Assembly (NCBI GenBank): GCA_041665545.1
Contig: JBAYIQ010000002.1
Coordinates: 2,369 to 66,368, forward strand
DNA from: Patescibacteria group bacterium
GTDB lineage: Bacteria > Patescibacteriota > Patescibacteriia > UBA1558 > GWA2-36-10
DNA length: 64,000 bases
Direction: 5' to 3'
The first letter of the stretch is position 1, and every line of letters begins with the position of its first letter. Below, in pieces: positions 1,014 to 60,788 of this stretch. The notes beneath the pieces are model-generated. The model made no database searches. It saw only the letters and a list, made by a program, of their open reading frames with translations, and was not told the DNA's origin. Position numbers and translations under genes: made by a program.

Positions 1014-1149
1014 GTCATTCTGGAGGGACCCTGAGCGACTTGTGGTGAGCGTAGCCGAACCAAGTCGAAGGGGACCGATAGAATCCACGGCATTAAAATT
1101 GGTAGATTCTATCGCTACCCGAGCTAAGCTCGGTTCGCCCCAGAATGAC
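1014..1149. repeat. ~135-nt nested palindromic repeat, copy 1 (outer stem GTCATTCTGG/CCAGAATGAC, inner stem CGATAGAATC/GATTCTATCG, GAGCTAAGCTC mini-palindrome)
   Basis: Inverted repeats read directly from the sequence. It shares both stem sequences with the copies at 24733-24870 and 60606-60767. Intergenic between dsbA-like and gatA. Confidence 0.65.
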
Positions 1150-6341: not shown

Positions 6342-7103
6342 TTATCTTTTGTACACCCGCGAAGAAACCGTAGTTTGTAAGTGGTGACTGGCCTGTTCAA
6401 TTGGCTGAGTGCTAAAATATTTTACCACTAAATTAACCGTCACTTTTGGTTGCTGATTGTTCAAGCCAGTGTCGTCAAAATAGGGATTAGTGGTTGGTGT
6501 CAAATTAAAATCCAAACTAGTTATCTGAACTTTATTATAACTTTGAGACAATAATACGACTGGTGCCTGGCCAGTAGCGATACTACAATTTGAGTAAACA
6601 TTATCAAGATAGAAGCAATCCAATTGAACATAATCAATCTCTATTTCAGTATTATCACTGACGCCATCATATGTGCCATCGTAGAAAAAACCCGCTGTTT
6701 CACCATTTTCTCTAACAAACATCAAGCATTTGGTGTATCTAGCATCAACCGACGAGCAAGCCGAAGTGTCAAAACTAATAATTTCATTATTCTTGATTTC
6801 TCTGCTGATTATTTCCAAAACGTACTGAGCGTTGTTTAATAATACTTGCGAACTCTGAGTTCTTTTTTGGTTGTTGGCAAAAGTACTAAACATCGAAGAA
6901 GCTATGGTGGCAATCACAGAAAAAATTGACACAGCAATCAGCATCTCCACCAAAGAAAACCCAGTACGAGAAACCGTAACATTATTCTTTAAAATCAATA
7001 ATTTTTTAATAATCTTAACCACTCTGGGTGACCAACTTAAACTTATTGGTTTCTCTGACTGGGCAAGCCCATTTTTATTATTAACTTTAATCATTGTCGC
7101 CAA
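6342..7103 (-). CDS. type IV minor pilin (prepilin-type N-terminal domain)
   Basis: Class III signal ...SRTG|FSLVEMLIAVSIFSVIA. The true start may be an internal TTG giving a ~13-aa leader. PilW-like position. Confidence 0.65.
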   Translation of the reverse strand: MATMIKVNNKNGLAQSEKPISLSWSPRVVKIIKKLLILKNNVTVSRTGFSLVEMLIAVSIFSVIATIASSMFSTFANNQKRTQSSQVLLNNAQYVLEIISREIKNNEIISFDTSACSSVDARYTKCLMFVRENGETAGFFYDGTYDGVSDNTEIEIDYVQLDCFYLDNVYSNCSIATGQAPVVLLSQSYNKVQITSLDFNLTPTTNPYFDDTGLNNQQPKVTVNLVVKYFSTQPIEQASHHLQTTVSSRVYKR

Positions 7104-7723
7104 TTATAAATATTTTCTACCACATCAATATGGCTGGTCTTGCTACCATAAGTATATTGGACTCGAGAAGTGACCTGTAAGCCAATTTTTTCTAAACCAA
7201 CACAAAACAGGTCGCTGGATACAGTTTCTATAGGAGCCACTGCGCTTGGAGCTGTGTTGAGGCAAATCGCTTTCAAATTTATCACTCGGCGAAAAACAGT
7301 CTCTTGGCTACTCGCACTATCACTAGTATAAAAACCATTTTTAACATACAGCTTAGACAAAGGATTATTTATAGCATCATCAAAATTACTCTCAACTATT
7401 TGGACTGTATTATTTCCGGTAGAACTGGCATAAGAATAATTAAAATTCAAACCACTATCCCAGTCATACAAATCTATGTCTAGATCGCTTGTATCAATAT
7501 CAATATTGGCCTCACGCGCTAGCCAATTACTGTCGCGAATATTACGCATAATCTCAATACCCTCTCTGGCTAAATCCGCGGCTACCACCCTATTATAATT
7601 TTCTTTAACTGTATTTAAATTATTCAAGGACAAAGAAAAAGCCGCTAAAATGCCAATAAAAAACACCGCAATAGCGATCAATAACTCGACCAAAGTAAAC
7701 CCGGTTAGAGAATCACGACCCAT
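7091..7723 (-). CDS. type IV minor pilin (prepilin-type N-terminal domain)
   Basis: Start refined to the ATG at 7723: MGRDSLTG|FTLVELLIAIAVFFIGILAAF, a canonical prepilin cleavage/methylation motif. PilV-like position. Confidence 0.7.
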   Translation of the reverse strand: MGRDSLTGFTLVELLIAIAVFFIGILAAFSLSLNNLNTVKENYNRVVAADLAREGIEIMRNIRDSNWLAREANIDIDTSDLDIDLYDWDSGLNFNYSYASSTGNNTVQIVESNFDDAINNPLSKLYVKNGFYTSDSASSQETVFRRVINLKAICLNTAPSAVAPIETVSSDLFCVGLEKIGLQVTSRVQYTYGSKTSHIDVVENIYNWRQ

Positions 7724-7914: not shown

Positions 7915-8856
7915 TTAAATACACGGTAGTGGATCAATATCTCCCAACCATTGACAATCCAGACAGTACCCGTGTACGTGGCTAGGGCAACAATTTGGCG
8001 GATCAACAAGACCACCGCAATCACCGTGTGAATTTATATCAAGACATGAATAAAGCCAACCGATATTAGGACATTCCAGATAATTATCTCTGTCCAGACC
8101 ATCAACTATTTCACATGTTTCAGACTGCATGATATAGCTATCACCGCAAGTGTTAATAATACAGTCTGGCCGGCAACTAGGATCAGACACGCCGTTTACA
8201 GTTGGTTCACAAGCTTCCCCAAGCTCTATAACGTCATTGCCACAAACTGGCCGGTTGGTGTCATAGGTAGTAGACAAATTGCTCCAAGTAAAATCATCGC
8301 TAGTTTTCTGACCGATAGTTATGGTTGATTTATAATAAATAGGCAGTGACTCTTCAAGAAATCCGTAATATATATCTATTTGATATTCACCTGTAGCGCT
8401 AGCATAAAAACCGGCTGGCTCAAAAATATTCTCAGTTTTAAAAACAAATCGTTTTTCACCTGTTGCACCCGTTGCATTAATCGCCGCTTCATAGCCATTA
8501 TAATAATTCGGATCAACCAAGCGAAAAGCCACATTGGCTAAGGTGACTGTTTTTAAAACATTAGAAGTACTACCAGCATATAATTTATAATAGCTTTTAT
8601 CGCCCGCCGTGCCATCACCATTGTGGAAAAAAATGCCATAGCCATTGCTTGGGAAGCTGCCGTTGTAGGTGGCCCTGGTAGCGGCCATGCTTCGCACATA
8701 GCGAATATCAGCCGCCAATCTAGTGGTATCCATCCTTAGTAAGGCAATAGTATCTGGTCTCATGTTGACCACAAAAAAAACAGACATTATGCCAATAATT
8801 ACTATCACAGCCATAACCTCAATCAAAGTAAACGCTGAACTATTATTCCAACGCAT
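7915..8856 (-). CDS. type IV minor pilin with Cys-rich C-terminal domain
   Basis: Start refined to the ATG at 8856: MRWNNSS|AFTLIEVMAVIVIIGIM. The C-terminal 90 aa carry more than 12 Cys. FimT/GspH-like position after pilD. Confidence 0.65.
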   Translation of the reverse strand: MRWNNSSAFTLIEVMAVIVIIGIMSVFFVVNMRPDTIALLRMDTTRLAADIRYVRSMAATRATYNGSFPSNGYGIFFHNGDGTAGDKSYYKLYAGSTSNVLKTVTLANVAFRLVDPNYYNGYEAAINATGATGEKRFVFKTENIFEPAGFYASATGEYQIDIYYGFLEESLPIYYKSTITIGQKTSDDFTWSNLSTTYDTNRPVCGNDVIELGEACEPTVNGVSDPSCRPDCIINTCGDSYIMQSETCEIVDGLDRDNYLECPNIGWLYSCLDINSHGDCGGLVDPPNCCPSHVHGYCLDCQWLGDIDPLPCI

Positions 8857-8860
8857 ATTA

Positions 8861-9640
8861 TTAAAACAATAATAAATTAAAATACCATTTGATAATTTCA
8901 CTGCCATATAGCAAACTAGCAAACGTCGCCACAGTCAAAAAAGTACCAAAAGGCACCCTGTCACTCCACTGTTTTCTTTTGCTCAAAATCAGAAAAATAC
9001 TAATAATACTGCCCAAGGTATAGGCCAAGATCAAAGCCAATAGCACCTGTGGCCAGCCAAGTAGCGCGCCCATCAAAAGCCCAATGCGTATATCTCCCCC
9101 GCCAATCCAACGGCCTTTGGACACCACAAACTGCATTAAGAAAAATCCTGCTCCCACTAGGCAAGCCAGTAAAACTTTAAAAATATTGCCACCCAAAATA
9201 ATATTGAACACAAAGGCAATAACGGCCGCCGGTAAAACTACGGCATCAGCCACCAGATAATATTTCCAATCAAAAACAAAAATTATAATCAAAAAAGCCG
9301 TGGCTACCCACCAGTTGAGCAGTGCCAAGTACTGCCAATAAGTGGCCTGATAAATATCAGGGGGCATGACGCTGGTATACACCAAAACCAAGCTCAGGGC
9401 TGTAAATAACTCCACCAAAGGATATTGGATGGAAAATTTGTGCTTACAATGCCGACACTTGCCTCTTAGATAAAAATAGCTAAAAAAAGGCACCAAATCT
9501 CTGACCATGAGCTGATGCTGACAAAAAAGGCACTTGGATCTTCCCTTAACAAAGGTCTCTTGGCGATGCAAACGAAAAACTACCACATTCAAGAAACTCC
9601 CTAAAAATAGACCAAAAATAAAAATTAAAGCTATTAACAT
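8861..9640 (-). CDS. pilD: prepilin peptidase (A24 family)
   Basis: 259 aa; the N-terminal Cys pairs C-x-x-C...C-x-x-C (CLFCQHQ...CRHCKH) and a polytopic membrane body are typical of PilD/GspO. Confidence 0.85.
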   Translation of the reverse strand: MLIALIFIFGLFLGSFLNVVVFRLHRQETFVKGRSKCLFCQHQLMVRDLVPFFSYFYLRGKCRHCKHKFSIQYPLVELFTALSLVLVYTSVMPPDIYQATYWQYLALLNWWVATAFLIIIFVFDWKYYLVADAVVLPAAVIAFVFNIILGGNIFKVLLACLVGAGFFLMQFVVSKGRWIGGGDIRIGLLMGALLGWPQVLLALILAYTLGSIISIFLILSKRKQWSDRVPFGTFLTVATFASLLYGSEIIKWYFNLLLF

Positions 9641-9688
9641 AATAGCTTTATTATAACATATTTAAGGGCTTGTGGGCTAATGACCTAC

Positions 9689-9794
9689 TTTTGTTCGAGC
9701 AAGGTTACGCAAAGCGGAACCGCATCGAGAACTCTAGTGCAGTCGAAAATTGCATTTCATGGATTTCTCGACTCGCTCCGCTCGCTCGAAGAAA
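9689..9794. repeat. GIY-YIG-associated nested hairpin repeat (TTCGAGC...TCGAGAA...TTCTCGA...GCTCGAA), 3' flank of the GIY-YIG gene
   Basis: Nested inverted repeats are visible; it is near-identical to the solo copy at 24887-24993. Confidence 0.65.
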
Positions 9795-10070
9795 TTACAT
9801 AATTTTACCCCACTGTCCATTAATGAGTTTTTCTTTTTTGATCCTGCTCCAATCTTTTATTTCTTTTTCTCTATATCTCGCACAATCAAAATCATCATAT
9901 TCCTCAACATAGATCAATTTTTTAATCCCATGCTTAGCTGTAAATTTAGAACCTAAACCACTTAAATGTTGATCAAGCCTTTTACTGACATCATTAGTTA
10001 AACCAACGTAATAAAGATCATCCTTGCAGAGGATAATATAAACAAACCATGATTTTTCTTTTTTAGACAT
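9795..10070 (-). CDS. small GIY-YIG nuclease family protein (UPF0213/YhbQ-like)
   Basis: 91 aa; WFVYIILCKDDLYYVGLTNDVSKRLDQH is a GIY-YIG motif. A second, interrupted copy lies at 28537-28815. Confidence 0.75.
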   Translation of the reverse strand: MSKKEKSWFVYIILCKDDLYYVGLTNDVSKRLDQHLSGLGSKFTAKHGIKKLIYVEEYDDFDCARYREKEIKDWSRIKKEKLINGQWGKIM

Positions 10071-10113
10071 CGCTTTTCTTAATAACGATTAGTATGTTTA
10101 TTTGGGTTCTGCT

Positions 10114-10236
10114 TTTTGTTCGAGCGAAGTCGAGAACTAATATTTTATAAACTTCTCGACTCCCCCTTCGGTGTCGCTCGAAGAAATAAGCTTTTGTTCG
10201 AGTAAGGTTATGCGAATCATAACCGCATCGAGAACT
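10114..10236. repeat. GIY-YIG-associated nested hairpin repeats (5' flank unit 10114-10190 plus partial unit 10192-10236)
   Basis: Outer stem TTCGAGCG/CGCTCGAA and inner stem GTCGAGAA/TTCTCGAC. It is the reverse complement of the repeat upstream of the pseudogene copy (28453-28536). Confidence 0.65.
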
Positions 10237-10244
10237 AACAAATC

Positions 10245-10682
10245 TTACAAATCCACGCAATACAGCAACGCTTCTTTCAGGATCCGACAACGGCCACCTT
10301 TGAACTTATTCACACCCCAAGCTGGCCAAGAATTATTCACCGAAAAATCTAGCTGATAATCATCATTCTGAATAGCCAAAGTAGTGTCCTCTGGCCAGAC
10401 AACATTATTAACATAAAATATCTGCGAACCACTTTCATTGACTCCTTGATCAGAAATATACTTAAGCTTATCAATAGTGATTTTGTCAATCTCCGGATAA
10501 GAACGATAAAGAGAATAATATTTTTCCAAAGCCCCGACTAGCAGTCTGGCATTGACTGCTGTCTGCACATCACGACTGCGACTATTGTTGTAATTAGTAA
10601 CTAGTACAATACCAATAATAGCCAAGACCATCAGCCCAATAAAAATTGCTTTAGTTTTTAAACTATATCTATCTAGTATCAT
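10245..10682 (-). CDS. hypothetical membrane-anchored protein, possibly degenerate pilin-like
   Basis: 145 aa with an N-terminal TM helix followed by SRSRDVQTAVNARLLVGALEKYY, which resembles the post-helix region of type IV pilins. There is no canonical G-F-T-L-I-E site. Confidence 0.35.
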   Translation of the reverse strand: MILDRYSLKTKAIFIGLMVLAIIGIVLVTNYNNSRSRDVQTAVNARLLVGALEKYYSLYRSYPEIDKITIDKLKYISDQGVNESGSQIFYVNNVVWPEDTTLAIQNDDYQLDFSVNNSWPAWGVNKFKGGRCRILKEALLYCVDL

Positions 10683-10733
10683 ATTTCTAAATTATTCGAC
10701 CCAGCGTGTCGGCCCGACCTCGCGGGTCTATCC

Positions 10734-11138
10734 TCATATGTCAGTTTTAGTACAGCCATCCTGAGTACAAGTCACAGTCGCAATATCAGTAATAGCACTA
10801 AAAGAAAAACTATTGGCCCCCTGATCACTGTCACAAAGGCCTTCGTCTACACCCATGGGGACGCGTGGCCACTCACTGTCAGAGCCATTACACAAAAGAT
10901 CTTCCTCTTGCCAAACTCGCGTGCCGTCACAAGCCACACCAGTACTATCTCTCAAATCCTGTTGAGCATCCTGACACAAAACAGCGGCCGAAATAAGACC
11001 AGACAAGGCCTTCTCAGCAGCCGCCACGCGCGCCAGCTTCCTGGCTCTATCCATACGCACCACTTGATAAGCCCCTAAGATACCAATAATGGCTATAACT
11101 ACCAATATTTCTATTAAACCAAAACCTTTTCTCTGCAT
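10734..11138 (-). CDS. type IV major pilin (PilA-like), paralog 2
   Basis: Start refined to the ATG at 11138: MQRKG|FGLIEILVVIAIIGILG. It shares an LCQD motif and a Cys pair with the neighbouring pilin. Confidence 0.8.
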   Translation of the reverse strand: MQRKGFGLIEILVVIAIIGILGAYQVVRMDRARKLARVAAAEKALSGLISAAVLCQDAQQDLRDSTGVACDGTRVWQEEDLLCNGSDSEWPRVPMGVDEGLCDSDQGANSFSFSAITDIATVTCTQDGCTKTDI

Positions 11139-11224
11139 ATAATATATTATACCATAATATTTGGAGTAACAAAAAACCCTACGCGAAATAGCGAGGGAAT
11201 TTTGTTTTTGAACTATAATAAATG

Positions 11225-11647
11225 CTACGAACAATAAGTAGCAGTTTGATTGGTAGCAGAAACACAACCATTTTGATTACATGTTATGCTCTCCCATGAA
11301 CCAGGTGTACCTGATTCTAAACCAATCTCCCATGTGCCATTTTGCGGATCCGCCTCAATGACGCAAGGTGTATAACCAGTTGGTGCTGTTGGCCATAATT
11401 GACCAATGGCATTACCAGCCGCTAATCCACAAATATCTGCAGTAACAAGATAAGGATTTAATACAGCAGTGGTGTCTTTATCTTGACACAAAACAATAGC
11501 GCCAGAAAGACTGGAACCCCAAGCTTTGGCAGCGGCTACTTTGGCTTTGTTTCTAGCTTGGTTCAAGTTAACAACGGCCACGACTGACAAAATACCGATA
11601 ATGGCAATAACCACTAACAACTCAATTAAAGTAAAACCTTTTTTCAT
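11225..11647 (-). CDS. type IV major pilin (PilA-like), paralog 1
   Basis: Start refined to the ATG at 11647, preceded by a GGAGGTG RBS: MKKG|FTLIELLVVIAIIGILSVVAVVNLNQARNKAKVAAAKA. Confidence 0.85.
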   Translation of the reverse strand: MKKGFTLIELLVVIAIIGILSVVAVVNLNQARNKAKVAAAKAWGSSLSGAIVLCQDKDTTAVLNPYLVTADICGLAAGNAIGQLWPTAPTGYTPCVIEADPQNGTWEIGLESGTPGSWESITCNQNGCVSATNQTATYCS

Positions 11648-11760
11648 TGTTGTTTCACCTCCCTTCAAATACCCAAGGCAATAATCTATAGCTTGAGATC
11701 CCCAAAGCTCTAAATAAATCCTTGGTTTTTTTAATTATTAAATTAATAAATACTTCTTAT

Positions 11761-11769
11761 ATTATATCA
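11761..11769 (-). promoter_or_regulatory. candidate extended -10 promoter element (TGATATAAT on minus strand) upstream of the major pilin gene
   Basis: The reverse complement of 11761-11769 reads TGATATAAT. A ~110-nt leader with a CCAAGG...CCTTGG palindrome precedes the RBS. Confidence 0.3.
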
Positions 11770-11793
11770 CAAAATAAGCCGAGCAACAATTTG

Positions 11794-13002
11794 CTAATCA
11801 ATATTTTGGGCTACTTTGTACATAGGCAACATAATAGCCGCTACTATACCACCCACACCCACACCCATCAGTATCAAAATTAGTGGCTCAATCAAAGTGG
11901 TCATATTGGCTACCATAGTATTGATTTCTCGACTATAAAAATCACTTAAGCGCTCCAAAATAGTGTCAATGCGACCGGTCTTTTCACCCACAATCATCAT
12001 CTGGGAAAGCATTTTGGGTACAAGGGGAGACTTGGCAAACAAAGTAGAAATAGAATTACCGGCCTCTACCTCAGCCACGGTCTTCATAATCAAATCAGCG
12101 TAAGCTTTGTTGTCCACCACCTCAGCCGTAATACGCAAGGCCATAGAAATCGGCACTCCGCCTTTGATCAGCGTATGCAAGCTCCTCGTAAAACGCACTA
12201 AATATATTTTCTTAAACAGTCCACCAAAGATGGGAATTTTGATCTTGATAGAGTCCCACATATTTTTACCACTTTGGCTCTTGGTCCAATACACAAAAAT
12301 AAAAGCTAATATTAATAATATAAAAAGAATATAATACCAAGAGCTGACCATAAAATCAGAAATAGCAATCAGCCAATTGGTGATAGCTGGCAATTCGGCG
12401 CCGCTTTCTTTGAGCATGGGCGTCAATTTGGGCAAAATATAGACCATCATCAAGACACTGACCCCAACCAAACCCACCAGAATCACCACTGGATAAATCA
12501 TGGCGCCTTTGATGCGAGCCACCAGATCATAATCTTTTTCCATTTGGTCGGCTAGGTACTCCAAGACCTCCTCCAGACGGCCAGAAGTCTCACCGCTTTT
12601 TATCATGGCCACAAAAAAATTGCTGAATATCTTGCTGTGCTTACTCATGGCATCAGATAGCTTCATGCCACCATCCACATCATTGGCAATTTCTATTATC
12701 TTGTCGGTGAACACTGGGTTACTAGTCTGCTGGGACAAAATACGCAAGGCCTGCACAATCGGAATAGTAGCGCTGATCATCACCGCCAACTGCCGAGAAA
12801 ATATCACCAAATCTTTTTGGTTGACTCCGCCGAGATTGATATTGATGCCTTTGAAATTCTTTTTCTTGCCCGCCACCAGTGACAAGACAATCAAACCGCG
12901 CTCACCCAAAAGCTCGGCGGCCTCGTTTTCTCCGGGCGCCTCTACGATGCCCGACAGTGACTCGCCATCCATGCTCCTAGCTCTGTATTTATAAGTGGCC
13001 AT
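11794..13002 (-). CDS. pilC: type IV pilus assembly platform protein (GspF family)
   Basis: 402 aa with two T2SS-F-like domains and polytopic membrane topology; operon position between pilT and the pilins. Confidence 0.88.
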   Translation of the reverse strand: MATYKYRARSMDGESLSGIVEAPGENEAAELLGERGLIVLSLVAGKKKNFKGININLGGVNQKDLVIFSRQLAVMISATIPIVQALRILSQQTSNPVFTDKIIEIANDVDGGMKLSDAMSKHSKIFSNFFVAMIKSGETSGRLEEVLEYLADQMEKDYDLVARIKGAMIYPVVILVGLVGVSVLMMVYILPKLTPMLKESGAELPAITNWLIAISDFMVSSWYYILFILLILAFIFVYWTKSQSGKNMWDSIKIKIPIFGGLFKKIYLVRFTRSLHTLIKGGVPISMALRITAEVVDNKAYADLIMKTVAEVEAGNSISTLFAKSPLVPKMLSQMMIVGEKTGRIDTILERLSDFYSREINTMVANMTTLIEPLILILMGVGVGGIVAAIMLPMYKVAQNID

Positions 13003-13004
13003 AA

Positions 13005-14072
13005 TTATTGTTTGAAATTCTGCTTAAATACTTGCGGGTTTCCTGCTACCTTCATAGCATCTTCAGGGTTGACCTCTCCGGCTTTGACTAGGTCAGACAG
13101 TGATTTGTCAAAATAGACCATACCCTCTTCCCGCGAAGTCTGCATGATGCTATTGAGTTGATAAAGATGATTATCCTTAATACTGGATCTGACGGCTGGG
13201 GTGTTGGTCAGCACTTCGCAAGCCAATCGTAAGCCCCCGCCCACTCGAGGCAATAGTCGCTGGCCAATAGCTACCAACAATACTTCGGCTAGCAGATTCT
13301 GACCCCAAGCTTTTTTGTCCGGCCCCAAGTTGCTGATAAAGCGGTCTAGACTGGAGATGATAGACTCGGTTTCCATGACTATAATGACTAATTTTCCGCT
13401 TTCGACTAGCTCGAGCGCCGACTCTTCCAAACCATCTTCTACCATACCACCGATAAATACCACATCAACATCCTCTTCTTTTATGGCCTCTAGGCCTTTG
13501 AGGTAGCTGGGCGTGTCGCGGCCGACTTGGCGCTGTTCGATGATTGATTGGTTGTTGACAAACAAATATTCAATGGGATTTTCCAATATTTGGATATGGA
13601 GGCCGCGATTGTGATTGAGAGTTTCTATTAAAGAAGCCGCGGTAGTGGTGCGTCCACTGCCAAATGGTCCAGTGATGATGATTAGGCCGGAATTTTTGGT
13701 CAATGCCTGTGTCACTGCTTGGGGTATGCCCAAATCTTTGGGTGACATAATAAAAGGCGGTATCATCCGAAAAGACAGGGCCAAAAATCCTTTTTGATAA
13801 AAAACTTTGGCTCGGTATCTGGCGCGCTCATTCCAAGTATAGACAGTGACCACTTCCCGCTCCTTGGTCAGTCGCTCTAATTCGTCTTTGCTCAAAAATG
13901 ACTCCGCCAAACCATTGATAATATCTGGTGTCATCACCTGCTCTTCACTAACTGTTGATAATTTGCCATCTATCCGCAAAACTGGATTATTGCCAGCCAC
14001 AAGATGCACATCAGTCGCCTTGCGCTCTGAAGCAATGTTTAATATTTTATTGATTAACAAGGTGTCAGTCAT
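13005..14072 (-). CDS. PilT-like retraction ATPase homolog with degenerate catalytic motifs (probable pseudo-ATPase)
   Basis: 355 aa and alignable to PilT along its length, but Walker A is GPFGSGRTT (K->R), the Asp box is LENPIE (D->N), Walker B is FIGGMVED (catalytic E->G), and the His box is GKLVIIVMET (both His lost). Confidence 0.8.
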   Translation of the reverse strand: MTDTLLINKILNIASERKATDVHLVAGNNPVLRIDGKLSTVSEEQVMTPDIINGLAESFLSKDELERLTKEREVVTVYTWNERARYRAKVFYQKGFLALSFRMIPPFIMSPKDLGIPQAVTQALTKNSGLIIITGPFGSGRTTTAASLIETLNHNRGLHIQILENPIEYLFVNNQSIIEQRQVGRDTPSYLKGLEAIKEEDVDVVFIGGMVEDGLEESALELVESGKLVIIVMETESIISSLDRFISNLGPDKKAWGQNLLAEVLLVAIGQRLLPRVGGGLRLACEVLTNTPAVRSSIKDNHLYQLNSIMQTSREEGMVYFDKSLSDLVKAGEVNPEDAMKVAGNPQVFKQNFKQ

Positions 14073-14078
14073 GCTTTA

Positions 14079-14453
14079 TTATTTGTCTAAAATCTTTTTT
14101 ATTTTACCTACTACCTCTGATGGCACAAAATGGGCCTTGATTAGATAATCAGCGGCTCCCAAAGCAAAACATTGATCAATGTGCTCTTTTTCAGAATAAT
14201 TAGTCAGCACAATGACTGGTATCTTACTAGTTTCTTGGCTGGCTTTGATGTTTTTTAACACTTCAAAACCATCCATTTCTGGCAATTTCAAATCCAGCAG
14301 AACCAAATCAGGCAAATCTTTGGCAATCATTTTTAAAGCTTGCACGCCAGTGGTGGCCTGTATGACTTTATAATTTTCCAAATTTAGTTTGGTGGCATAC
14401 ATAGATAATAAAAATCCATCATCCTCTACCACCAGTATCATTTTTTGTTCCAT
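14079..14453 (-). CDS. single-domain response regulator receiver (CheY/PilH-like)
   Basis: 124 aa; MILVVEDDGFL...DLVLLDLKLPEMDG with conserved acidic pocket and phospho-acceptor Asp. It sits inside the pilus operon. Confidence 0.8.
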   Translation of the reverse strand: MEQKMILVVEDDGFLLSMYATKLNLENYKVIQATTGVQALKMIAKDLPDLVLLDLKLPEMDGFEVLKNIKASQETSKIPVIVLTNYSEKEHIDQCFALGAADYLIKAHFVPSEVVGKIKKILDK

Positions 14454-14468
14454 AAAAATTTCTTAATA

Positions 14469-16205
14469 TTAAGATTTGCTGACCCTCATTACTTCTTCCA
14501 AGGTAGTCCAACCCAAAGCAACTTTTATCAAGCCATCTTGCTCCATGGTGATAAAATGCTGTTTTTGTAACTCCGCTTCGGCTTGACGCCTATCAAAGCC
14601 CTTGGCTACTATTTCTTGAAGCTCACGATCAATACTCATGGCCTCGACTATTGATAAACGGCCTTTGTAGCCAGTCTGGCTACAGTTGGGACAGCCCACG
14701 GCTTTATAAAATTTTATATTTTCCACCTTGAAACCACTATAATAAGCTTCCTTGGGTATGGTAGCTAGCTTGCTCTGCACCTGTGCGCTAAGATCGGCTG
14801 GCAACTGACTTTCTACCTTGCAACTATTACACAATTTCCTGACCAAGCGTTGAGCCACGACGGCGTTTAAAGTATTAGCCAGCAAAAATGGCTCCACTTT
14901 CATATCAAACAAACGGGGTATAGCACCCATGCAGTCATTGGTGTGCAAAGTGGTTAAGACTGAGTGTCCAGTCAAACCAGCATGAATGGCTAACTCAGCT
15001 GTTTCATTGTCGCGAATTTCTCCCACCATGATAATATCAGGATCTTGCCTCAAGAGTGAACGCAAACCAGTGGCAAAAGTAAAATTAACCTCGGGCTTGA
15101 TCTGGGCCTGATTGACTCCGGGAATATAGTACTCCACTGGATCTTCCAAGGTAGCAATATTTATATCTTCTTTATTTAAAAAACTCAAAGCCGCATAAAG
15201 AGTGGTTGATTTACCGCTACCGGTAGGCCCTGTCACTAGAAATAGCCCGTGGGGCTCATTGATGCTTTCCATGACAATCTTGGCCTGCAAACCAAAAAAT
15301 CCTAAGTCAGCAAAAGTCGGCGCTTTATCAGGAGTTTCCAAAAGCCGCATAACTACTTTTTCTTGACCCATCAAGGGCAAAGTAGAAACGCGAATATCAA
15401 TTTCTTTGTTGTGGACATTGATGCGAATACGACCATCTTGCGGTATGCGAGTTTCATCAATTTTCAAGTTGGCCATGACTTTGATTCTGGATATCAAGGC
15501 GGCGTGCACATAAATAGGCAAGACAATGGTCGTGTGCAAAATACCGTCAATTCTATATCTAACTCGACTTTGTTTGTTCACTGGCTCAATATGAATATCC
15601 GAAGCGCGCCCTTCAATAGCGTGCCTCAGCACCACCGAAACAATTTTGGAAACTGGAGCGCTTTTGACTACCTCAGATACATCGGTCTGAGCGCCGGTCT
15701 CAACATCCATGGTACCAAATATCTCTTCGGCTGTACCCAGGGCCTCGCCTACTTCATGCCCCAAGGTCTCATATTGCTTGATAGCGCTACGATAGCTGTC
15801 CTGGGAGATGATATAGTACTTGACGCCATATTGTCGCTTGCGAGCCAAAAAATTAAGGGCTTCAACCGCTTTAAGGTCAGTGGGGTCTACTAGGCCGGCT
15901 GATAGATTATCCCCTTCCCGACCAAAAACTACCATATGATAATTATCAGCTAAATCTTGAGGAAAAATATTTAATATTTCACTGGAAATGACTACGCCCA
16001 TCAAAGAACGATATTCCAAACCATAGAAAATACCCTTGGCCTGCGTCCAATCCTCTTCCGATAAAATAACCATCTGCCTGATGGCATTTTCCATATCAGT
16101 AAAAGAAGCGAATTGTTGGTTAGACAATTCGTTGCGTTGAATATCGGTAATATATTGATGGCTAGCCAGCCAGGCCAGTAATTTGTCTGTTTCTTTTTTT
16201 ATCAT
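14469..16205 (-). CDS. pilB: type IV pilus assembly ATPase (GspE family)
   Basis: 578 aa with intact Walker A (GPTGSGKST), Asp box (LEDPVEY), Walker B (MVGEIRD) and His box (GHSVLTTLHTND), plus a tetracysteine CNSC...CPNC. Confidence 0.9.
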   Translation of the reverse strand: MIKKETDKLLAWLASHQYITDIQRNELSNQQFASFTDMENAIRQMVILSEEDWTQAKGIFYGLEYRSLMGVVISSEILNIFPQDLADNYHMVVFGREGDNLSAGLVDPTDLKAVEALNFLARKRQYGVKYYIISQDSYRSAIKQYETLGHEVGEALGTAEEIFGTMDVETGAQTDVSEVVKSAPVSKIVSVVLRHAIEGRASDIHIEPVNKQSRVRYRIDGILHTTIVLPIYVHAALISRIKVMANLKIDETRIPQDGRIRINVHNKEIDIRVSTLPLMGQEKVVMRLLETPDKAPTFADLGFFGLQAKIVMESINEPHGLFLVTGPTGSGKSTTLYAALSFLNKEDINIATLEDPVEYYIPGVNQAQIKPEVNFTFATGLRSLLRQDPDIIMVGEIRDNETAELAIHAGLTGHSVLTTLHTNDCMGAIPRLFDMKVEPFLLANTLNAVVAQRLVRKLCNSCKVESQLPADLSAQVQSKLATIPKEAYYSGFKVENIKFYKAVGCPNCSQTGYKGRLSIVEAMSIDRELQEIVAKGFDRRQAEAELQKQHFITMEQDGLIKVALGWTTLEEVMRVSKS

Positions 16206-24732: not shown

Positions 24733-24870
24733 AAAAAAACCGCCTACCAATTGTCATTCTGGAGCGAAATCCGCAGGACGAAGCGATAGAATCTACAGTT
24801 TGATTAAAACCCGTAGATTCTATCGGTCGCTCCGCTCCCTCCAGAATGACGACGAAACAGGCGGTTTTTT
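24733..24870. repeat. ~135-nt triple-nested palindromic repeat, copy 2 (A7CCGCCT...AGGCGGT6 outermost stem; GTCATTCTGGAG/CTCCAGAATGAC; GCGATAGAATCTAC/GTAGATTCTATCG)
   Basis: All three stem levels were read directly. It is flanked by an A-run and a T-run and so looks like a bidirectional intrinsic terminator, directly downstream of lemA. Confidence 0.7.
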
Positions 24871-24886
24871 ATTTTTAACAACTCTG

Positions 24887-25026
24887 TTTTTGTTCGAGTA
24901 AGGTTACGCGAAGCGAAACCGCATCGAGAACTATAGTGCAGTCGAAAATTATATTTCATGGACTTCTCGACTCCCTACGGTCGCTCGAAGAAAAAAAGTT
25001 ATTATGGATCGCTCAAAGAAATAAGC
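24887..25026. repeat. solo copy of the GIY-YIG-associated nested hairpin repeat (no nuclease gene)
   Basis: Near-identical to 9689-9794 (TTTTGTTCGAGTAAGGTTACGCGAAGCGAAACCGCATCGAGAACT...TTCTCGACTCC...GCTCGAAGAAA), followed by a short terminal motif resembling the 5'-flank repeat. Confidence 0.65.
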
Positions 25027-28452: not shown

Positions 28453-28536
28453 TTTCTTCGAGCGATCCCGAGCAAAGCCGAGGGAGAGTCGAGAAGTTCT
28501 CGACTGCGCTCGAACAAATATTATATAAGAAAAGCG
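28453..28536. repeat. GIY-YIG-associated nested hairpin repeat (upstream of pseudogene copy)
   Basis: TTTCTTCGAGCGA...GAGTCGAGAAGTTCTCGACTG CGCTCGAACAAA...TAAGAAAAGCG-ATG, with outer and inner palindromes. Confidence 0.65.
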
Positions 28537-28815
28537 ATGATTCCCGTTAGAAATTCCCAATGGTTTGTTTATATTATCCTGTGCAAGGATGATCTTTATT
28601 ATGTTGGCCTAACCAATGACATTAGTAAGAGATTTGATCAACACTTGAGTGGCCTGGGATCAAAATTTACCGCTAAACACGGGGTGAAAGAGTTAGTTTA
28701 TGTGGAGTAATATGATGATTTTGATTGTGCGAGATATAGAGAAAAAGAAATAAAAGATTGGAGCAGGATCAAAAAAGAAAAACTCATTAATGGGCAGTGG
28801 GGTAAAATTATGTAA
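28537..28815 (+). pseudogene. GIY-YIG nuclease family gene interrupted by an in-frame TAA (codon 58; GAA in the intact paralog)
   Basis: Translation MIPVRNSQWFVYIILCKDDLYYVGLTNDISKRFDQHLSGLGSKFTAKHGVKELVYVE*YDDFDCARYREKEIKDWSRIKKEKLINGQWGKIM is ~90% identical to the 9795-10070 product apart from the stop. Confidence 0.7.
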
Positions 28816-28900
28816 TTTCTTCGAGCGACCATGGGGAGTCGAGAAGTTAATGAAATACTAGTTCTCGACTGCGCTCGAACAAATATTATTTAAGAAAACA
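28816..28900. repeat. GIY-YIG-associated nested hairpin repeat (second copy, immediately upstream of the comF-like gene)
   Basis: Same architecture as 28453-28536. Both copies end in ...TAAGAAAA[GCG/CA]ATGATTCC, so the repeat plus ~20 nt of the gene 5' end are duplicated. Confidence 0.65.
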
Positions 28901-29566
28901 ATGATTCCTTTTAGCCAATATCTAAATAATTTTTTAGATTATATATTCCCTCAATTTTGTTTGGGCTGTAAGCAAGAAGGAAATATATTTTGTGATTCTT
29001 GTCTAAACAAATTAGAATTACTACCCGACAACCAGAAACCCTGGCCTGAGGAAAATTTTTTGTTTGATGAGTGCCATATTTGCCTTGATTATCACGATCC
29101 AGTTGTCAAAAAATTAATTAAAAAATATAAATATGGCTATTTTGACAACTTGGCCAATCCAATTGCCGCGGTCTATATCAAAAAAATAAACAATTTAAAT
29201 TTAAATAATGCTTTTATTATCTGCAATGTTCCTCTGCACAAACGCAAAAAGAAAAAACGTGGCTTTGACCAAACCGAATTAATTGCCAAAAAAATTAGTG
29301 CTAATACTCAAATCCCCTATTTTGATTTATTAAACCGCCAGCGTTTCACCAAAGCACAAGCCGAGCTTGATAAAGAGCAACGACAAAAAAATATGTCGCA
29401 AGCTTTTGTGATTAACAAAAAAATTAACTCACTGGAGTTAATTAATCACCCTGTATTATTGATTGACGATATTGCCACCACTGGCACCACTCTGAATGAG
29501 GCCTCTCGTGCCCTCCAACAAGCTGGTTTTAAACAAATTATTTGCCTAGCCTTAGCTAAAAACTAA
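28901..29566 (+). CDS. comFC: ComF-family protein (phosphoribosyltransferase-domain competence protein)
   Basis: 221 aa with an N-terminal Zn-finger (CLGCKQEGNIFCDSC) and a C-terminal PRTase motif (VLLIDDIATTGTTL). Confidence 0.75.
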   Translation: MIPFSQYLNNFLDYIFPQFCLGCKQEGNIFCDSCLNKLELLPDNQKPWPEENFLFDECHICLDYHDPVVKKLIKKYKYGYFDNLANPIAAVYIKKINNLNLNNAFIICNVPLHKRKKKKRGFDQTELIAKKISANTQIPYFDLLNRQRFTKAQAELDKEQRQKNMSQAFVINKKINSLELINHPVLLIDDIATTGTTLNEASRALQQAGFKQIICLALAKN

Positions 29567-34986: not shown

Positions 34987-35916
34987 CTAATCACCTCCAC
35001 AACGACTAGCGTCTATACCCCACTCACCTCCTACTGGCGCACACTTATCAGCACGATAAGGTATGTCCTCACAACACCAGGTTCTAGAATCTGGATTATT
35101 TTCAATTTGACAATCACTATTACTAGAACATGATTTTGTTCTTAAATCTGAACAAATTGTGCTCCAATAACAAACCTCACCTAGTGGAGAGGTGCCATTT
35201 TTAAAATTTTTACCATAACAGGCATTAACGCGGCAGTTTGGTTCATCCAAAGCATCCATGAAATATCTAATACCTTCATAACCACTTGAGGAGTAGGTTC
35301 TTTCTGATGAAATGGGAAATTCTATTTGCAGACAATCTATAACCGTACTTGGTGCTGTGGCAGCTACTGCTGTTGTATCTAGGCATTTGCCAGTAGCCGT
35401 GGCATCAAGGGCTATCTGTTCTGGAGTGGCCTTTACCCACTTACAACTAGGTGCTGGACAAGATTTTTCTATAGTAAACACCGAACAAGTAAGTTTTGGT
35501 AAATCCCTGTTCAGTGGCTCAAAAGATACTAAACGCTGACTAATTAGTGATAACAATATATAGCCCCCAAACAAAAGAGCCAAACCAATCAAGGTGCTAT
35601 TGATCTTGTCTCGAGCACTAGATATTTTGGATGAATTACCACCAGCCAGTAACCACTCCCAGCCAGCATAGACCAACATAAACATAGCCACCACCCCAGC
35701 AAACATACCGCCATAGCGGTATATACCAACAATGTATTTGGCTAAAGATGAGCCATCAACTAAAAATGGCTCTCCGGCTGTATAAAGCCCAGGAATAGTC
35801 ATGGATGGTATAAACTCTAGTGGCGTAGTATTTTCCTTATCAGCGGCTATTACAATATTGGCCAACACAAAACCAAGAGAAAAAATCAGCAATAAAATTA
35901 TTTTTTTATTTTTCAT
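34987..35916 (-). CDS. VirB2/TrbC-like pilin-fold membrane protein with Cys-rich C-terminal domain (paralog A)
   Basis: 309 aa with a signal peptide and two hydrophobic helices separated by a short polar loop (GMFAGVVAMFMLVYAGWEWLLAGG-NSSKISSARDKIN-STLIGLALLFGGYILLSLIS). The C-terminus has ~18 Cys. The N-terminal 150 aa are near-identical to 35932-36978. Confidence 0.45.
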   Translation of the reverse strand: MKNKKIILLLIFSLGFVLANIVIAADKENTTPLEFIPSMTIPGLYTAGEPFLVDGSSLAKYIVGIYRYGGMFAGVVAMFMLVYAGWEWLLAGGNSSKISSARDKINSTLIGLALLFGGYILLSLISQRLVSFEPLNRDLPKLTCSVFTIEKSCPAPSCKWVKATPEQIALDATATGKCLDTTAVAATAPSTVIDCLQIEFPISSERTYSSSGYEGIRYFMDALDEPNCRVNACYGKNFKNGTSPLGEVCYWSTICSDLRTKSCSSNSDCQIENNPDSRTWCCEDIPYRADKCAPVGGEWGIDASRCGGD

Positions 35917-35931
35917 GAAAAAATTCTATAA

Positions 35932-36978
35932 TCAATTTAATTGAAAGTGCCACCATTCGGTATCAAGTTGTTTAAAACCAGCACTACGCATTGTTTGAAG
36001 CAAAACCCATTGAGCATCATACAATCCAGGTACTCCGGCGCAAGGAGCAGGATTGGAGTGATTGTCCATGGCGCAATTGTATGCTTTGTTAATATACCCA
36101 CAGGTATCAACCGTGGAATTCTTAATGCAAATATCCACCGCTGTTCCAGTTTGGTGAGGAGCATCACAACCTGGTTTAGCCGCTTCATTACACGAGCGAC
36201 AACCAGTGGGACAAGTATTACCATCCTTATTAATATAACAATCATACAACTCCTTTTGTAAGGCCGTTGTACGATAAGCGCTATTTATTTGTAAACTATG
36301 CCCAGGATAGGCATTCAAAAATATTACTGCACTTCCTAGAGCTGAAATTGTCGGGCCAGTCAACCTGCAATCGGTGCACTCCGAACTAAGAATAATACCA
36401 CTAACTTGTATCGGCTTAACCAATGACTCTGAAGGACAAGCCGTAGACGCCAACGACAAAGCGTCTTTACAAAAACCCAAAACTTTTGGATCTTTTGCCA
36501 ACTCCTCGGCTGTAGCTGGAATCCAAAAACATCTAGCTTTGGTGCATTCATCTGGTTTACTAAAAGCCATACAAATTGCTTTCACATCAGGCAAAGCTGT
36601 ATTCAGTGGTTTAAATTTTACTAAATTTTCGCTAATCAAAGAAAGCAAAATATAGCCACCAAATAAAAGTGCTAAGCCAATCAGCGTGCCATTGATCTTG
36701 TCTCGAGCACTAGATATTTTGGATGAGTTACCCCCAGCCAGTAGCCATTCCCAGCCAGCATAGACCAGCATAAACATAGCCACCACGCCAGCAAACATAC
36801 CACCATAACGGTAAATGCCAACAATATATCTGGCTAAAGTTCCTCCATCTACCGTAACTTCCTTTGTGAATTCACTACCGGGTATATCGATGCTCGGTTT
36901 GAATTCTATAGCCATTACTAAAAGCGGCAAAAATATTGCTGTTACAAAATAAAAAGTTATTAAAAACTTTTTTAACAT
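35932..36978 (-). CDS. fusion protein: VirB2/TrbC-like membrane module plus C-terminal peptidase M15 (VanY/D-Ala-D-Ala carboxypeptidase-like) domain (paralog B)
   Basis: 348 aa with the same N-terminal module as paralog A. The C-terminus carries LAS/M15 zinc-hydrolase motifs SAYRTTALQKELY, HQTGTAVDI and EWWHFQ. Confidence 0.55.
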   Translation of the reverse strand: MLKKFLITFYFVTAIFLPLLVMAIEFKPSIDIPGSEFTKEVTVDGGTLARYIVGIYRYGGMFAGVVAMFMLVYAGWEWLLAGGNSSKISSARDKINGTLIGLALLFGGYILLSLISENLVKFKPLNTALPDVKAICMAFSKPDECTKARCFWIPATAEELAKDPKVLGFCKDALSLASTACPSESLVKPIQVSGIILSSECTDCRLTGPTISALGSAVIFLNAYPGHSLQINSAYRTTALQKELYDCYINKDGNTCPTGCRSCNEAAKPGCDAPHQTGTAVDICIKNSTVDTCGYINKAYNCAMDNHSNPAPCAGVPGLYDAQWVLLQTMRSAGFKQLDTEWWHFQLN

Positions 36979-47376: not shown

Positions 47377-47387
47377 TTTTTGTCATT

Positions 47388-47645
47388 GCGCACATTATCT
47401 GTGCGTCACCCCGCACTGACCACGTTAAACGCGTCATCCCGCACTTGTTGCGGGATCTAACCAAAAATAATGACACGCTAGATTCCTGCCTGCGCCCCCT
47501 TCGCCGCGAGGCGAGCGGGAATGACGACAAAAAGCATGAGAATGACAACTTTAAGTATGTCATTGCGAGCGAACGTAGTGAGCGTGGCAATCTACAGCTT
47601 TTGGATTGCTTCGTCGCCTGCGGACTCCTCGCAATGACGAATCAT
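47388..47645. repeat. array of ~5 degenerate 35-45-bp hairpin repeat units (GTCATTGCGAGCGAAC...GCAATC / GTCATCCCGCACTTGTTGCGGGATC type), some in inverted orientation
   Basis: Read directly; the units at 47559-47593 and 47602-47637 are inverted copies. The array lies between convergent genes and generates the spurious ORFs 47357-47590(-) and 47361-47651(+). Confidence 0.6.
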
Positions 47646-60544: not shown

Positions 60545-60605
60545 TTATTCGCCTTTAAGTTTTTATAATTATAACATAAAAACCAAAATAAACCAAAATA
60601 AAAAA

Positions 60606-60767
60606 CCACTAACTTCTTTTGGTCATTCTGGAGCGCCGTCGAGCTAAGCTCGACAAGCGATAGAATCCAAAACTCTATTTAAAATTTGTAGATTCTATCG
60701 ATCGCTCCGCCTCCGCCAGCTGGCGGATAGCGGAGCTCTCTCCAGAATGACGACGCAAAGTGAGTGG
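60606..60767. repeat. ~135-nt nested palindromic repeat, copy 3 (GTCATTCTGGAG/CTCCAGAATGAC; GCGATAGAATC/GATTCTATCG; GAGCTAAGCTC; CCGCCAGCTGGCGG)
   Basis: Read directly; it shares both stems with copies 1 and 2 and has an additional outermost imperfect stem CCACTAACTT/AAGTGAGTGG. Confidence 0.65.
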
Positions 60768-60788
60768 TAATTTAAATAAATAAAATAA

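Follow-up and report, generated by a model that had tools for sequence, protein, structure and literature searches.

The conspicuous nested palindromes in a 64,000-nucleotide (nt) stretch of a Patescibacteria genome, hereafter the window, are best explained as Ssn-related motif (SRM)-type repeats of an Ssn-like nuclease system, an assignment to which we give a probability of roughly 80%. Any specific biological role for the repeats is held much less firmly. The repeated element is a hairpin unit of 30-75 nt, and each nested palindrome consists of two such units placed head-to-head (family 1). The Ssn/SRM system itself is already known, having been described in 2025 (Chenal et al., Nat Commun; PMC11893778). 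What is new here are the sequence variants, their hosts, evidence of insertion into the loop of a terminator, and a sister family of nucleases and hairpins.

Direct reading of the sequence recovered all stems that the initial annotation had quoted for its best palindrome, at 24733-24870 (copy 2). The outer arm (GTCATTCTGGAG / CTCCAGAATGAC) and the inner arm (CGATAGAATCyAC / GTAGATTCTATCG) both recur at 1014-1149 (copy 1) and 60622-60751 (copy 3), so the stem sequences are indeed shared among copies. Matches to the outer-arm pattern numbered 12 in the window against 3.5 expected, and those to the inner-arm pattern 6 against 0.86, in each case above every shuffle. Folded as RNA, the three copies reach -67.8, -63.2, and -80.4 kcal/mol (z-scores against shuffled sequence: -11.8, -6.2, and -8.3). 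With three copies folding far better than shuffled sequence, the proposed palindrome family is real. Its proposed 3' intergenic placement also held, as all three copies lie 4-40 nt past a stop codon with the next gene downstream on the same strand. Copy 1 is preceded by a GatA-like amidase gene and followed by a DsbA-like gene, copy 2 stands between LemA and an M48 peptidase, and copy 3 between KsgA and a hypothetical gene. The count of three proved incomplete: the listed copies are present, but a fourth, sister-type doublet (47559-47638) and two single units had been missed. The region 47380-47640, between convergent genes, is packed with SRM-type units and fragments.

The unit has the consensus GTC-AyyCT-GGAG-[variable apical hairpin]-CGAT-AGrrT-CyAC. 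Its 5-bp basal stem (AyyCT/AGrrT) is followed by a G-T pair, a tandem G-A/A-G step, and the variable apical hairpin, and the GTC 5' of the stem and the C 3' of it are invariant. We could read the order GTC-stem...stem-C(Y)A in all six family-1 units of the window and in four units at 47.4 kb. Scanning one genome per species with the pattern GTAGATTCTATCG-N12-42-CCAGAATGAC returned 53 loci, in which the half-palindrome stood singly, in tandem arrays, or in inverted pairs (loci from this and the other searches carry L numbers below). Adjacent units were head-to-head in 80 pairs, tail-to-tail in 27, and in tandem in 24.

Covariation identified the hairpin of the single unit as the conserved structure. 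With context alone fixed, the two free stem positions were complementary in 126 of 130 units (TT/AA 100, CT/AG 15, TC/GA 9, TG/CA 2). In an alignment of 18 equal-length seed units, 98.3% of cells were paired and five of ten pairs had changed on both sides; none of 500 shuffles was as good, and at most 50% of cells were paired when partners were slid. A covariance model built from these seed units matched only the known sites in the window. Applied to loci that had been selected by their nuclease proteins, the model yielded 35 distinct units with 99.3% of cells paired, eight of ten pairs changed on both sides, and 46 cells changed on both sides (0/500 shuffles as good), in an alignment fitted to the covariance model and hence somewhat favouring structure. 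Of 78 distinct head-to-head doublets, 45 combined units with different basal stems, such as ACTCT/AGAGT next to ATTCT/AGAAT. Because so many doublets are heterotypic, which breaks pairing between the arms and spares the unit hairpins, we rejected the long-hairpin model. It is each unit's hairpin that is conserved; the long palindrome joining the arms is a side product, which copy 2 happens to show in nearly perfect form. The initial annotation's expectation of covariation that preserves pairing was therefore borne out within units but failed between the two arms. Copies were mostly intergenic, rather than inside coding regions, as its account demanded.

The unit helix is also asymmetric. It contains the conserved G-T pair and one or two tandem G-A/A-G steps, which on the complementary strand turn into A-C and pyrimidine-pyrimidine mismatches. 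With DNA folding parameters, 77 of 91 distinct units had their more stable hairpin on the GTC strand. A doublet holds one unit on each strand. At orthologous sites in genomes 85-89% identical, unit ends were kept and apical modules had been swapped from a small shared set that includes GTCGAGCTAAGCTCGAC, GTCGCGTCTGACGCGAC, and CCCAGCTGCTCGCGAGCGGCTGGG.

A partner gene emerged from a six-frame search of the genome loci, which revealed small GIY-YIG open reading frames (ORFs) between or beside units in L009, L018, L032, and L052. The order in L009, a Christensenellaceae metagenome-assembled genome (MAG), is left unit, GIY-YIG gene, right unit. Among the 29 ORFs of 70-250 amino acids (aa) within 150 nt of units in the partial genomes covered, GIY-YIG was the sole recurrent Pfam family, with three members, and neither Y1_Tnp nor another transposase was present. 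To approach the association from the protein side, we searched metagenomes with an alignment of these GIY-YIG proteins and scored the flanks of the 80 loci returned, chosen by protein alone, with a generic unit definition (GTC, 5-nt stem, loop, complementary stem, C). A forward unit lay at most 150 nt upstream of the gene in 51 of 75 loci (68%), a reverse unit at most 150 nt downstream in 43 of 78 (55%), and units stood on both sides in 31 of 73 (42%), compared with a background of 0.03 units per 150 nt per strand. Most of the flanking units were of the type GTC-ATTCCCGC-GAAA-GCGGGAAT-CCAG. Family-1-type units flanked or abutted the gene in L062, L067, L074, and L077 among these metagenome loci, in relatives' loci obtained from protein look-ups (L147-L149), and in the four loci of the six-frame search.

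In the window's lineage, a family-1 doublet begins 5 nt past the stop codon of the cognate gene, which lies between pgk and eno in L018, L147, and L149 and at a different locus in L148. The nuclease of L018/L149 has 96 aa (MDNKQYYVYILATYKNGTLYVGV...). Assemblies of relatives, among them ERZ781236, which underlies the closest MAG, contain proteins that share 97-98% identity with the L018 Ssn; of the three closest Ssn homologues, none was traced to the window's own sample. Family-1-associated proteins match Pfam PF01541 only, are ~95 aa long, and are 51-72% identical to proteins flanked by NTS-like ATTCCCGC..GCGGGAAT hairpins.

These features can be compared with the published system. In Neisseria, the repeat NTS (CGTCATTCCCGCGMAVGCGGGAATCYRG) contains dRS3 and is arranged as NTS-ssnA-NTS (PMC11893778). 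The same study described SRMs as hairpin-forming semi-palindromes of 20-50 nt that flank genes for single-domain GIY-YIG proteins of ~94 aa (CDD cd10448 'Ssn'), being found near 71% of Ssn homologues and on both sides of 42%. SsnA binds the hairpin as single-stranded DNA only and cuts a few nt upstream, and is inactive on double-stranded DNA, RNA, and the reverse strand; the three nt 5' of the palindrome (GTC) are needed for cutting and the C just 3' for binding (PMC11893778). In N. meningitidis the enzyme lowers transformation by NTS-carrying DNA, and in Neisseria the nuclease acts on dispersed repeats in vivo (PMC11893778). Its authors likened the system to insertion sequences and to repetitive extragenic palindromic (REP) elements with their REP-associated tyrosine transposases (RAYT), and left mobility as a hypothesis; Patescibacteria, Bacillota, doublets, and terminators are not mentioned (PMC11893778).

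The window units have the ends GTCATTC...GAATCYA in common with NTS. Like NTS, they are oriented hairpins, here supported by covariation, with an invariant GTC 5' and C 3' of the stem, and they occur as many intergenic copies, inverted copies of which flank a ~95-aa single-domain GIY-YIG gene. Our flanking frequencies of 68% upstream, 55% downstream, and 42% on both sides compare with the published 71% for at least one SRM and 42% for both sides. Because the NTS ends and the gene association are both shared, we filed the window units as SRM-type. They differ in being compound (basal stem, G-T, tandem G-A, exchangeable apical hairpin), in belonging to a host of the Patescibacteria, or candidate phyla radiation (CPR), and in forming tight gene-less head-to-head doublets, one of them in a terminator loop. 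A literature search on the repeat sequences, or on GIY-YIG tied to REP elements, REP doublets forming hairpins (REPINs), miniature inverted-repeat transposable elements (MITEs), YhbQ, or Patescibacteria, found no account of such repeats.

The terminator in question is that of LemA, upstream of copy 2. Because L145 and L146, which carry a LemA orthologue of 81% identity, have a bare terminator (AAAAACCGCC-TTAAGG-GGCGGTTTTTT) at the same place, the copy 2 doublet can be placed in the loop of an ancestral terminator. The filled site of the window reads AAAAAAACCGCC-TACCAATT-[doublet]-GACGAAACA-GGCGGTTTTTT, and a promoter (TTGACA...TGTTATATTA) follows the terminator in L145/L146 and in the window alike. 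This comparison rests on raw sequences, the MAFFT alignment of these sites being poor. Other simple terminators occupy the LemA site in L137, L141, and L143, and L138-L140 (LemA 88%) have a different, NTS-type doublet inside an AT-rich stem. L138, L139, and L140 encode an identical LemA protein, yet in L139 the apical loop of one unit (about 1790-1900) holds an additional G+C-rich hairpin module of ~40 nt that the other two lack, a case in which the gain or loss of one hairpin within another can be seen directly.

It follows that the triple-nested palindrome of the initial annotation, though its stems are all present, is a composite of a host terminator and a two-unit insert. The A-run and T-run flanks had been taken for a family trait, but the A7CCGCCT/AGGCGGT6 stem occurs in copy 2 only and belongs to the host. 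The outer stem of copy 3 has another sequence and copy 1 has no outer stem; copy 1 has neither a terminator stem nor a T-run, and units elsewhere are without T-runs. The repeat itself thus does not contain the G+C-rich stem and T-run of an intrinsic terminator. As L145/L146 have the T-run and its stem without the insert, the view that the element is not a generic terminator was well founded. A transcribed doublet would probably lengthen the terminator hairpin as a side effect, and some influence on transcription termination or mRNA stability is likely.

Several points weigh against assigning the repeats to an Ssn-like system. The published SRM pattern, HGTCWYN(0-2)YYVSBRHN(0-5)WNVSBRGN(0-2)RNCYNB, had 0 matches on both strands of the window; the pattern is an operational search tool that allows at most about 35 nt, and because it finds none of the window units we describe these as an extended variant. 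At 30-75 nt, a length due to their apical inserts, the units are longer and more interrupted than any biochemically tested SRM. The family-1 cognate Ssn gene is absent from the 64-kb window and was found only in close relatives or their assemblies, and this nuclease subfamily is known from sequence alone. No presence/absence pair for a family-1 doublet was obtained at near-identical sequence, so the insertion junction is not set to the base. Finally, enclosure by complementary flanks was not general. Across 74 doublets, flank complementarity had no overall significance (Mann-Whitney p = 0.32), and we rejected the rule that all doublets sit in terminator loops. A tail of 13 doublets did fall below the 5th percentile of the mismatched-flank control, where ~4 were expected, and several of these are A-run/stem...stem/T-run terminators.

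If the assignment to an Ssn-like system is correct, the GTC strand of a unit would fold into a hairpin whenever the DNA is single-stranded, as in incoming transforming DNA, at replication forks, or during repair. By analogy to the tested Neisseria and Wolbachia enzymes, the cognate ~95-aa Ssn would bind the folded unit and cut a few nt 5' of GTC. The full-length element would be [unit>][ssn gene][<unit], and the doublets would be its two ends with the gene missing, much like REPINs or MITEs. Their architecture suggests that doublets would spread with the help of the nuclease, and recombination repair or gene conversion after a cut is one possible way of moving the DNA. That a cognate Ssn cleaves the units in this organism, how the doublets spread, and a role in DNA uptake are all points that we infer.

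Similar arrangements are known from MITEs such as the Neisseria Correia and cyanobacterial Nezha elements, which likewise are gene-less derivatives keeping the inverted ends of a gene-carrying element. The doublets resemble them further in length (about 100-135 bp), intergenic position, and presence or absence between relatives. They differ in that each end is itself a hairpin and in that the partner enzyme is a single-stranded-DNA-specific nuclease for which no strand-transfer activity is known. The three copies do have inverted ends, but their flanks (AATT/GACG, AATT/AGCA, and TTTG/GACG) show no direct duplication of the target site. The initial annotation had offered a structured RNA, a protein-binding element, or a MITE, and a conserved multi-copy element of a protein-binding, MITE-like kind is what the results support.

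The first of these options, in which the repeats would act primarily at the RNA level as structured non-coding RNA, terminator, or mRNA-stabilising 3' hairpin, we consider unlikely. It would account for the location of copies 4-40 nt past stop codons, for RNA z-scores of -6 to -12, and for the T-run at the end of copy 2. Copies 1 and 3 have three C-A mismatches on the plus strand, which would turn into G-U pairs on a transcribed minus strand; we dropped this reading, since two of these positions coincide with the variable Y of the CYA flank and lie beyond the unit hairpin. As for the T-run and its stem, they are part of the terminator that was there before the insert. Rfam gave no match to the repeats even at E ≤ 10 beyond chance-level miRNA and snoRNA matches in the repeat region, and only three tRNAs reached the gathering score in the whole window. 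Structure is conserved per unit, the units of a doublet are on opposite strands, and units are sense upstream and antisense downstream of ssn genes. Moreover, the nuclease of the homologous system binds DNA in single-stranded form, but neither RNA nor double-stranded DNA (PMC11893778).

REP elements and REPINs mobilised by a RAYT, that is, a domesticated IS200/IS605-type Y1 transposase, offer a closer likeness. A GTAG foot followed by an imperfect palindrome is the REP signature, and the bottom strand of each unit reads GTAG-ATTCT...AGAAT-GAC. The units further resemble REPs, bacterial interspersed mosaic elements (BIMEs), and REPINs as short imperfect palindromes occurring as singlets and as inverted doublets forming long hairpins, dispersed in intergenic positions after genes, with an associated gene flanked by repeats. 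Chenal et al. drew the same analogy (PMC11893778). The partner here, however, is a GIY-YIG nuclease and not an HUH/Y1 transposase: in the genome fragments covered, the ORFs near units include three GIY-YIG and no transposase family, and GIY-YIG genes chosen by protein alone are flanked by units. REPs are typically species- or genus-specific, whereas the exact unit sequence here is common to MAGs labelled as several phyla. We therefore regard mobilisation by a RAYT as very improbable, more so than a primary function in RNA.

A third alternative keeps the GIY-YIG genes and reverses their relation to the repeats, which would be host sequences with an independent role that the genes target as homing-endonuclease-like parasites. 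GIY-YIG genes do stand exactly in the 'loop' position of a doublet in L009 and L155, the gene-plus-doublet module is found at different loci in related genomes, and relatives differ in having or lacking an entire [doublet][gene][doublet] block. Yet gene-less doublets are themselves polymorphic, the clade-specific hairpin families fit co-evolution as much as targeting, and the Neisseria nuclease acts on dispersed repeats in vivo (PMC11893778). This alternative is hard to separate from an Ssn/SRM-type system by sequence alone, and we rate its chances as low, on a par with those of an RNA-level function.

A second hairpin family (family 2) with a different nuclease is also present in the window. 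It comprises 11 units, in heterotypic doublets at five places, in which TTTGTTC-GAGCG...TCGA-GAAC is paired with TTTCTTC-GAGCGA...GTCGA-GAAG (basal stems GTTC/GAAC and CTTC/GAAG). An intact GIY-YIG gene and a GIY-YIG pseudogene each have family-2 doublets on both sides. The protein of the intact gene matched the UPF0213 structure BH0048 (PDB 1zg2) over its full length (E = 8e-13), more strongly than the family-1 nuclease did (E = 1.2e-7), and has the H-x-SG-x-G-x-K-[FY]-T motif of the UPF0213 group (BH0048; EF2693, PDB 1ywl; YhbQ family). We know of no report of cognate hairpin repeats for UPF0213 proteins, whereas the clade of the window protein has flanking hairpins of its own. In our search this clade had 33 proteins, all source-named members being Patescibacteria, and family-2-like units flank its genes in four independent lineages (the window and three further). 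Each nuclease clade thus has its own hairpin family, family 1 going with the Ssn type and family 2 with the UPF0213-like type. Because the doublet at 24889-24993 is missing from three orthologous loci and the whole block 28453-28898 from the orthologous locus L031, family-2 elements are gained or lost between close relatives.

Taking both families together, one might propose that GIY-YIG/hairpin modules are active mobile elements that seek hairpin loops, and that the UPF0213-like Patescibacteria clade with its own hairpins extends the principle beyond cd10448. The gene-carrying form and the gene-less doublets would then insert into single-stranded loops, such as those of terminators or the apical loops of other units, and would build nested palindromes layer by layer. 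This idea arises because of the insert in the terminator loop, the apical module gained in L139, and the complementary flanks of 13/74 doublets, and we put it forward tentatively, as less probable than not being so. The GIY-YIG genes beside a pilus cluster and a ComF-like gene could also link the system with the way CPR bacteria acquire DNA.

The 53 loci with family-1 units are spread over numerous Patescibacteria MAGs as well as MAGs labelled Christensenellaceae, Clostridia, Eubacteriales, Fibrobacter, Opitutales, and "Gammaproteobacteria", and identical unit sequences occurred in MAGs labelled as several phyla. The CAZILH010000xxx contigs (L017, L018, L031, L035, L056), labelled uncultured Gammaproteobacteria, had 80-89% DNA identity and shared gene order with the window. 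Their labels are probably wrong, so the apparent spread across phyla is weaker than it looks. In viral contigs, the inner-hairpin pattern had one match, without unit architecture, and none of the 5 contigs matched by the unit pattern had a GIY-YIG ORF. One viral-classed contig of 5.3 kb (L157, IMG/VR) carries eight family-1-type units as pairs ~50 nt apart, with no GIY-YIG ORF detected, and may be a host fragment.

These results would explain the intergenic nested palindromes of CPR/Patescibacteria and other MAGs as ends of Ssn-type nuclease elements, not as riboswitch-like RNAs. They imply that the published search pattern misses a whole subclass of compound hairpins. Empty and filled orthologous sites, together with the terminator-loop insert, provide sequence-level evidence that modules come and go like mobile elements, the point that was left as a hypothesis in PMC11893778. 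If true, the link between the UPF0213-like clade and its own hairpins would carry the principle of nuclease plus repeat past the cd10448 family. The 96-aa nuclease of L018/L149 and the GTCATTCTGGAG...CGATAGAATCTAC hairpin make a candidate enzyme/site pair for site-specific cutting of single-stranded DNA. The coordinates of all features are listed in Table 1.

Table 1. Coordinates of repeat units, doublets, and associated features in the window. E values in the last column refer to the covariance model unless stated otherwise.
Feature	Position	Strand	Sequence or description	Match
Copy 1 doublet	1014-1149		two units head-to-head	
Copy 1 left unit	1014..1088	+	branched apical insert, about 50 nt	
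Copy 1 right unit	1102..1149	-	apical module CCGAGCTTAGCTCGG	E=1.9e-08
Copy 2 doublet	24753-24850		two units head-to-head	
Copy 2 left unit	24753..24796	+	GTC-ATTCT-GGAGCGA-[ATCCGCAGGAC]-GAAGCGAT-AGAAT-CTAC	E=6.7e-11
Copy 2 spacer between units	24797-24812		AT-rich, 16 nt	
Copy 2 right unit	24813..24850	-	minus-strand reading GTCATTCTGGAGGGAGCGGAGCGACCGATAGAATCTAC	top match in window, 64.3 bits, E=8e-16
LemA terminator, 5' half	24733..24745	+	A-run + CCGCCT; not part of repeat	
LemA terminator, 3' half	24858..24870	+	AGGCGG + T-run; not part of repeat	
Copy 3 doublet	60622-60751		two units head-to-head	
Copy 3 left unit	60622..60670	+	apical module GTCGAGCTAAGCTCGAC	E=2.6e-07
Copy 3 right unit	60688..60751	-	long apical hairpin	
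Copy 3 outer stem, 5' half	60605..60615	+	CCACTAACTT...; approximate, from predicted fold	
Copy 3 outer stem, partner half	~60758-60768		approximate, from predicted fold	
Single simple unit	47433..47457	+	GTC-ATCCCGCA-CTTGT-TGCGGGAT-C; near canonical NTS shape	
Single unit	47481..47525	-	GTC-ATTCCCGC...GCAGGAAT-CTAG	
Sister-type doublet	47559..47638		ATTGC/GCAAT basal stem; units 47559-47592 (+), 47604-47638 (-)	left unit E=1e-05
Family-2 doublet	9690-9794		flanks intact GIY-YIG gene	
Intact GIY-YIG gene, UPF0213-like	9795..10070	-	91 aa, single domain	PF01541, 7e-18
Family-2 doublet	10115-10238		flanks intact GIY-YIG gene	
Family-2 doublet	24889-24993		TTTGTTC-GAG..TCGA-GAAC (+), TTTCTTC-GAGCGA..GTCGA-GAAG (-); directly downstream of copy 2	
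Doublet-pseudogene-doublet block	28453..28898	+	GIY-YIG pseudogene 28537-28815, in-frame TAA	
Family-2 doublet	28453-28518		flanks GIY-YIG pseudogene	
Family-2 doublet	28816-28883		flanks GIY-YIG pseudogene	

The surroundings of the GIY-YIG genes have further features. The intact gene lies inside a type IV pilus cluster (PilB, PilT, PilC, pilins, PilD; 7915-16205), and the pseudogene copy is directly upstream of a ComF-like phosphoribosyltransferase gene (28901-29566). Given the role of Ssn in transformation, it is suggestive that both neighbourhoods concern DNA uptake, these being two cases only. A conserved leader, AATCGTTAYTAAGAAAAGCGAT(T)ATG, stands ahead of GIY-YIG genes in both clades (window 10071-10095, L018 2735-2769, and L147-L149), and in L031 (about 7085-7117) it precedes the ComF-like gene where the window has the GIY-YIG block. 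This leader may be a footprint or a shared promoter or ribosome-binding-site module. Over its first codons the pseudogene (ATGATTCCCGTTAG) is similar to the ComF-like gene (ATGATTCCTTTTAG), as if an insertion had duplicated the start region of the host gene. Within the block, a 39-nt direct repeat (28495-28533 / 28860-28898, 97% identical) covers one hairpin unit and the upstream region.

Contigs of several relatives (L137-L140; P0001-P0010) end 130-270 nt after LemA, inside or just past repeats, and the repeats probably break metagenome assemblies. Elsewhere in the window, a 263-nt direct repeat of 83% identity (35498-35760 / 36590-36852) falls in the adjacent minus-strand ORFs 34987-35916 and 35932-36978, which are probably tandem paralogues.

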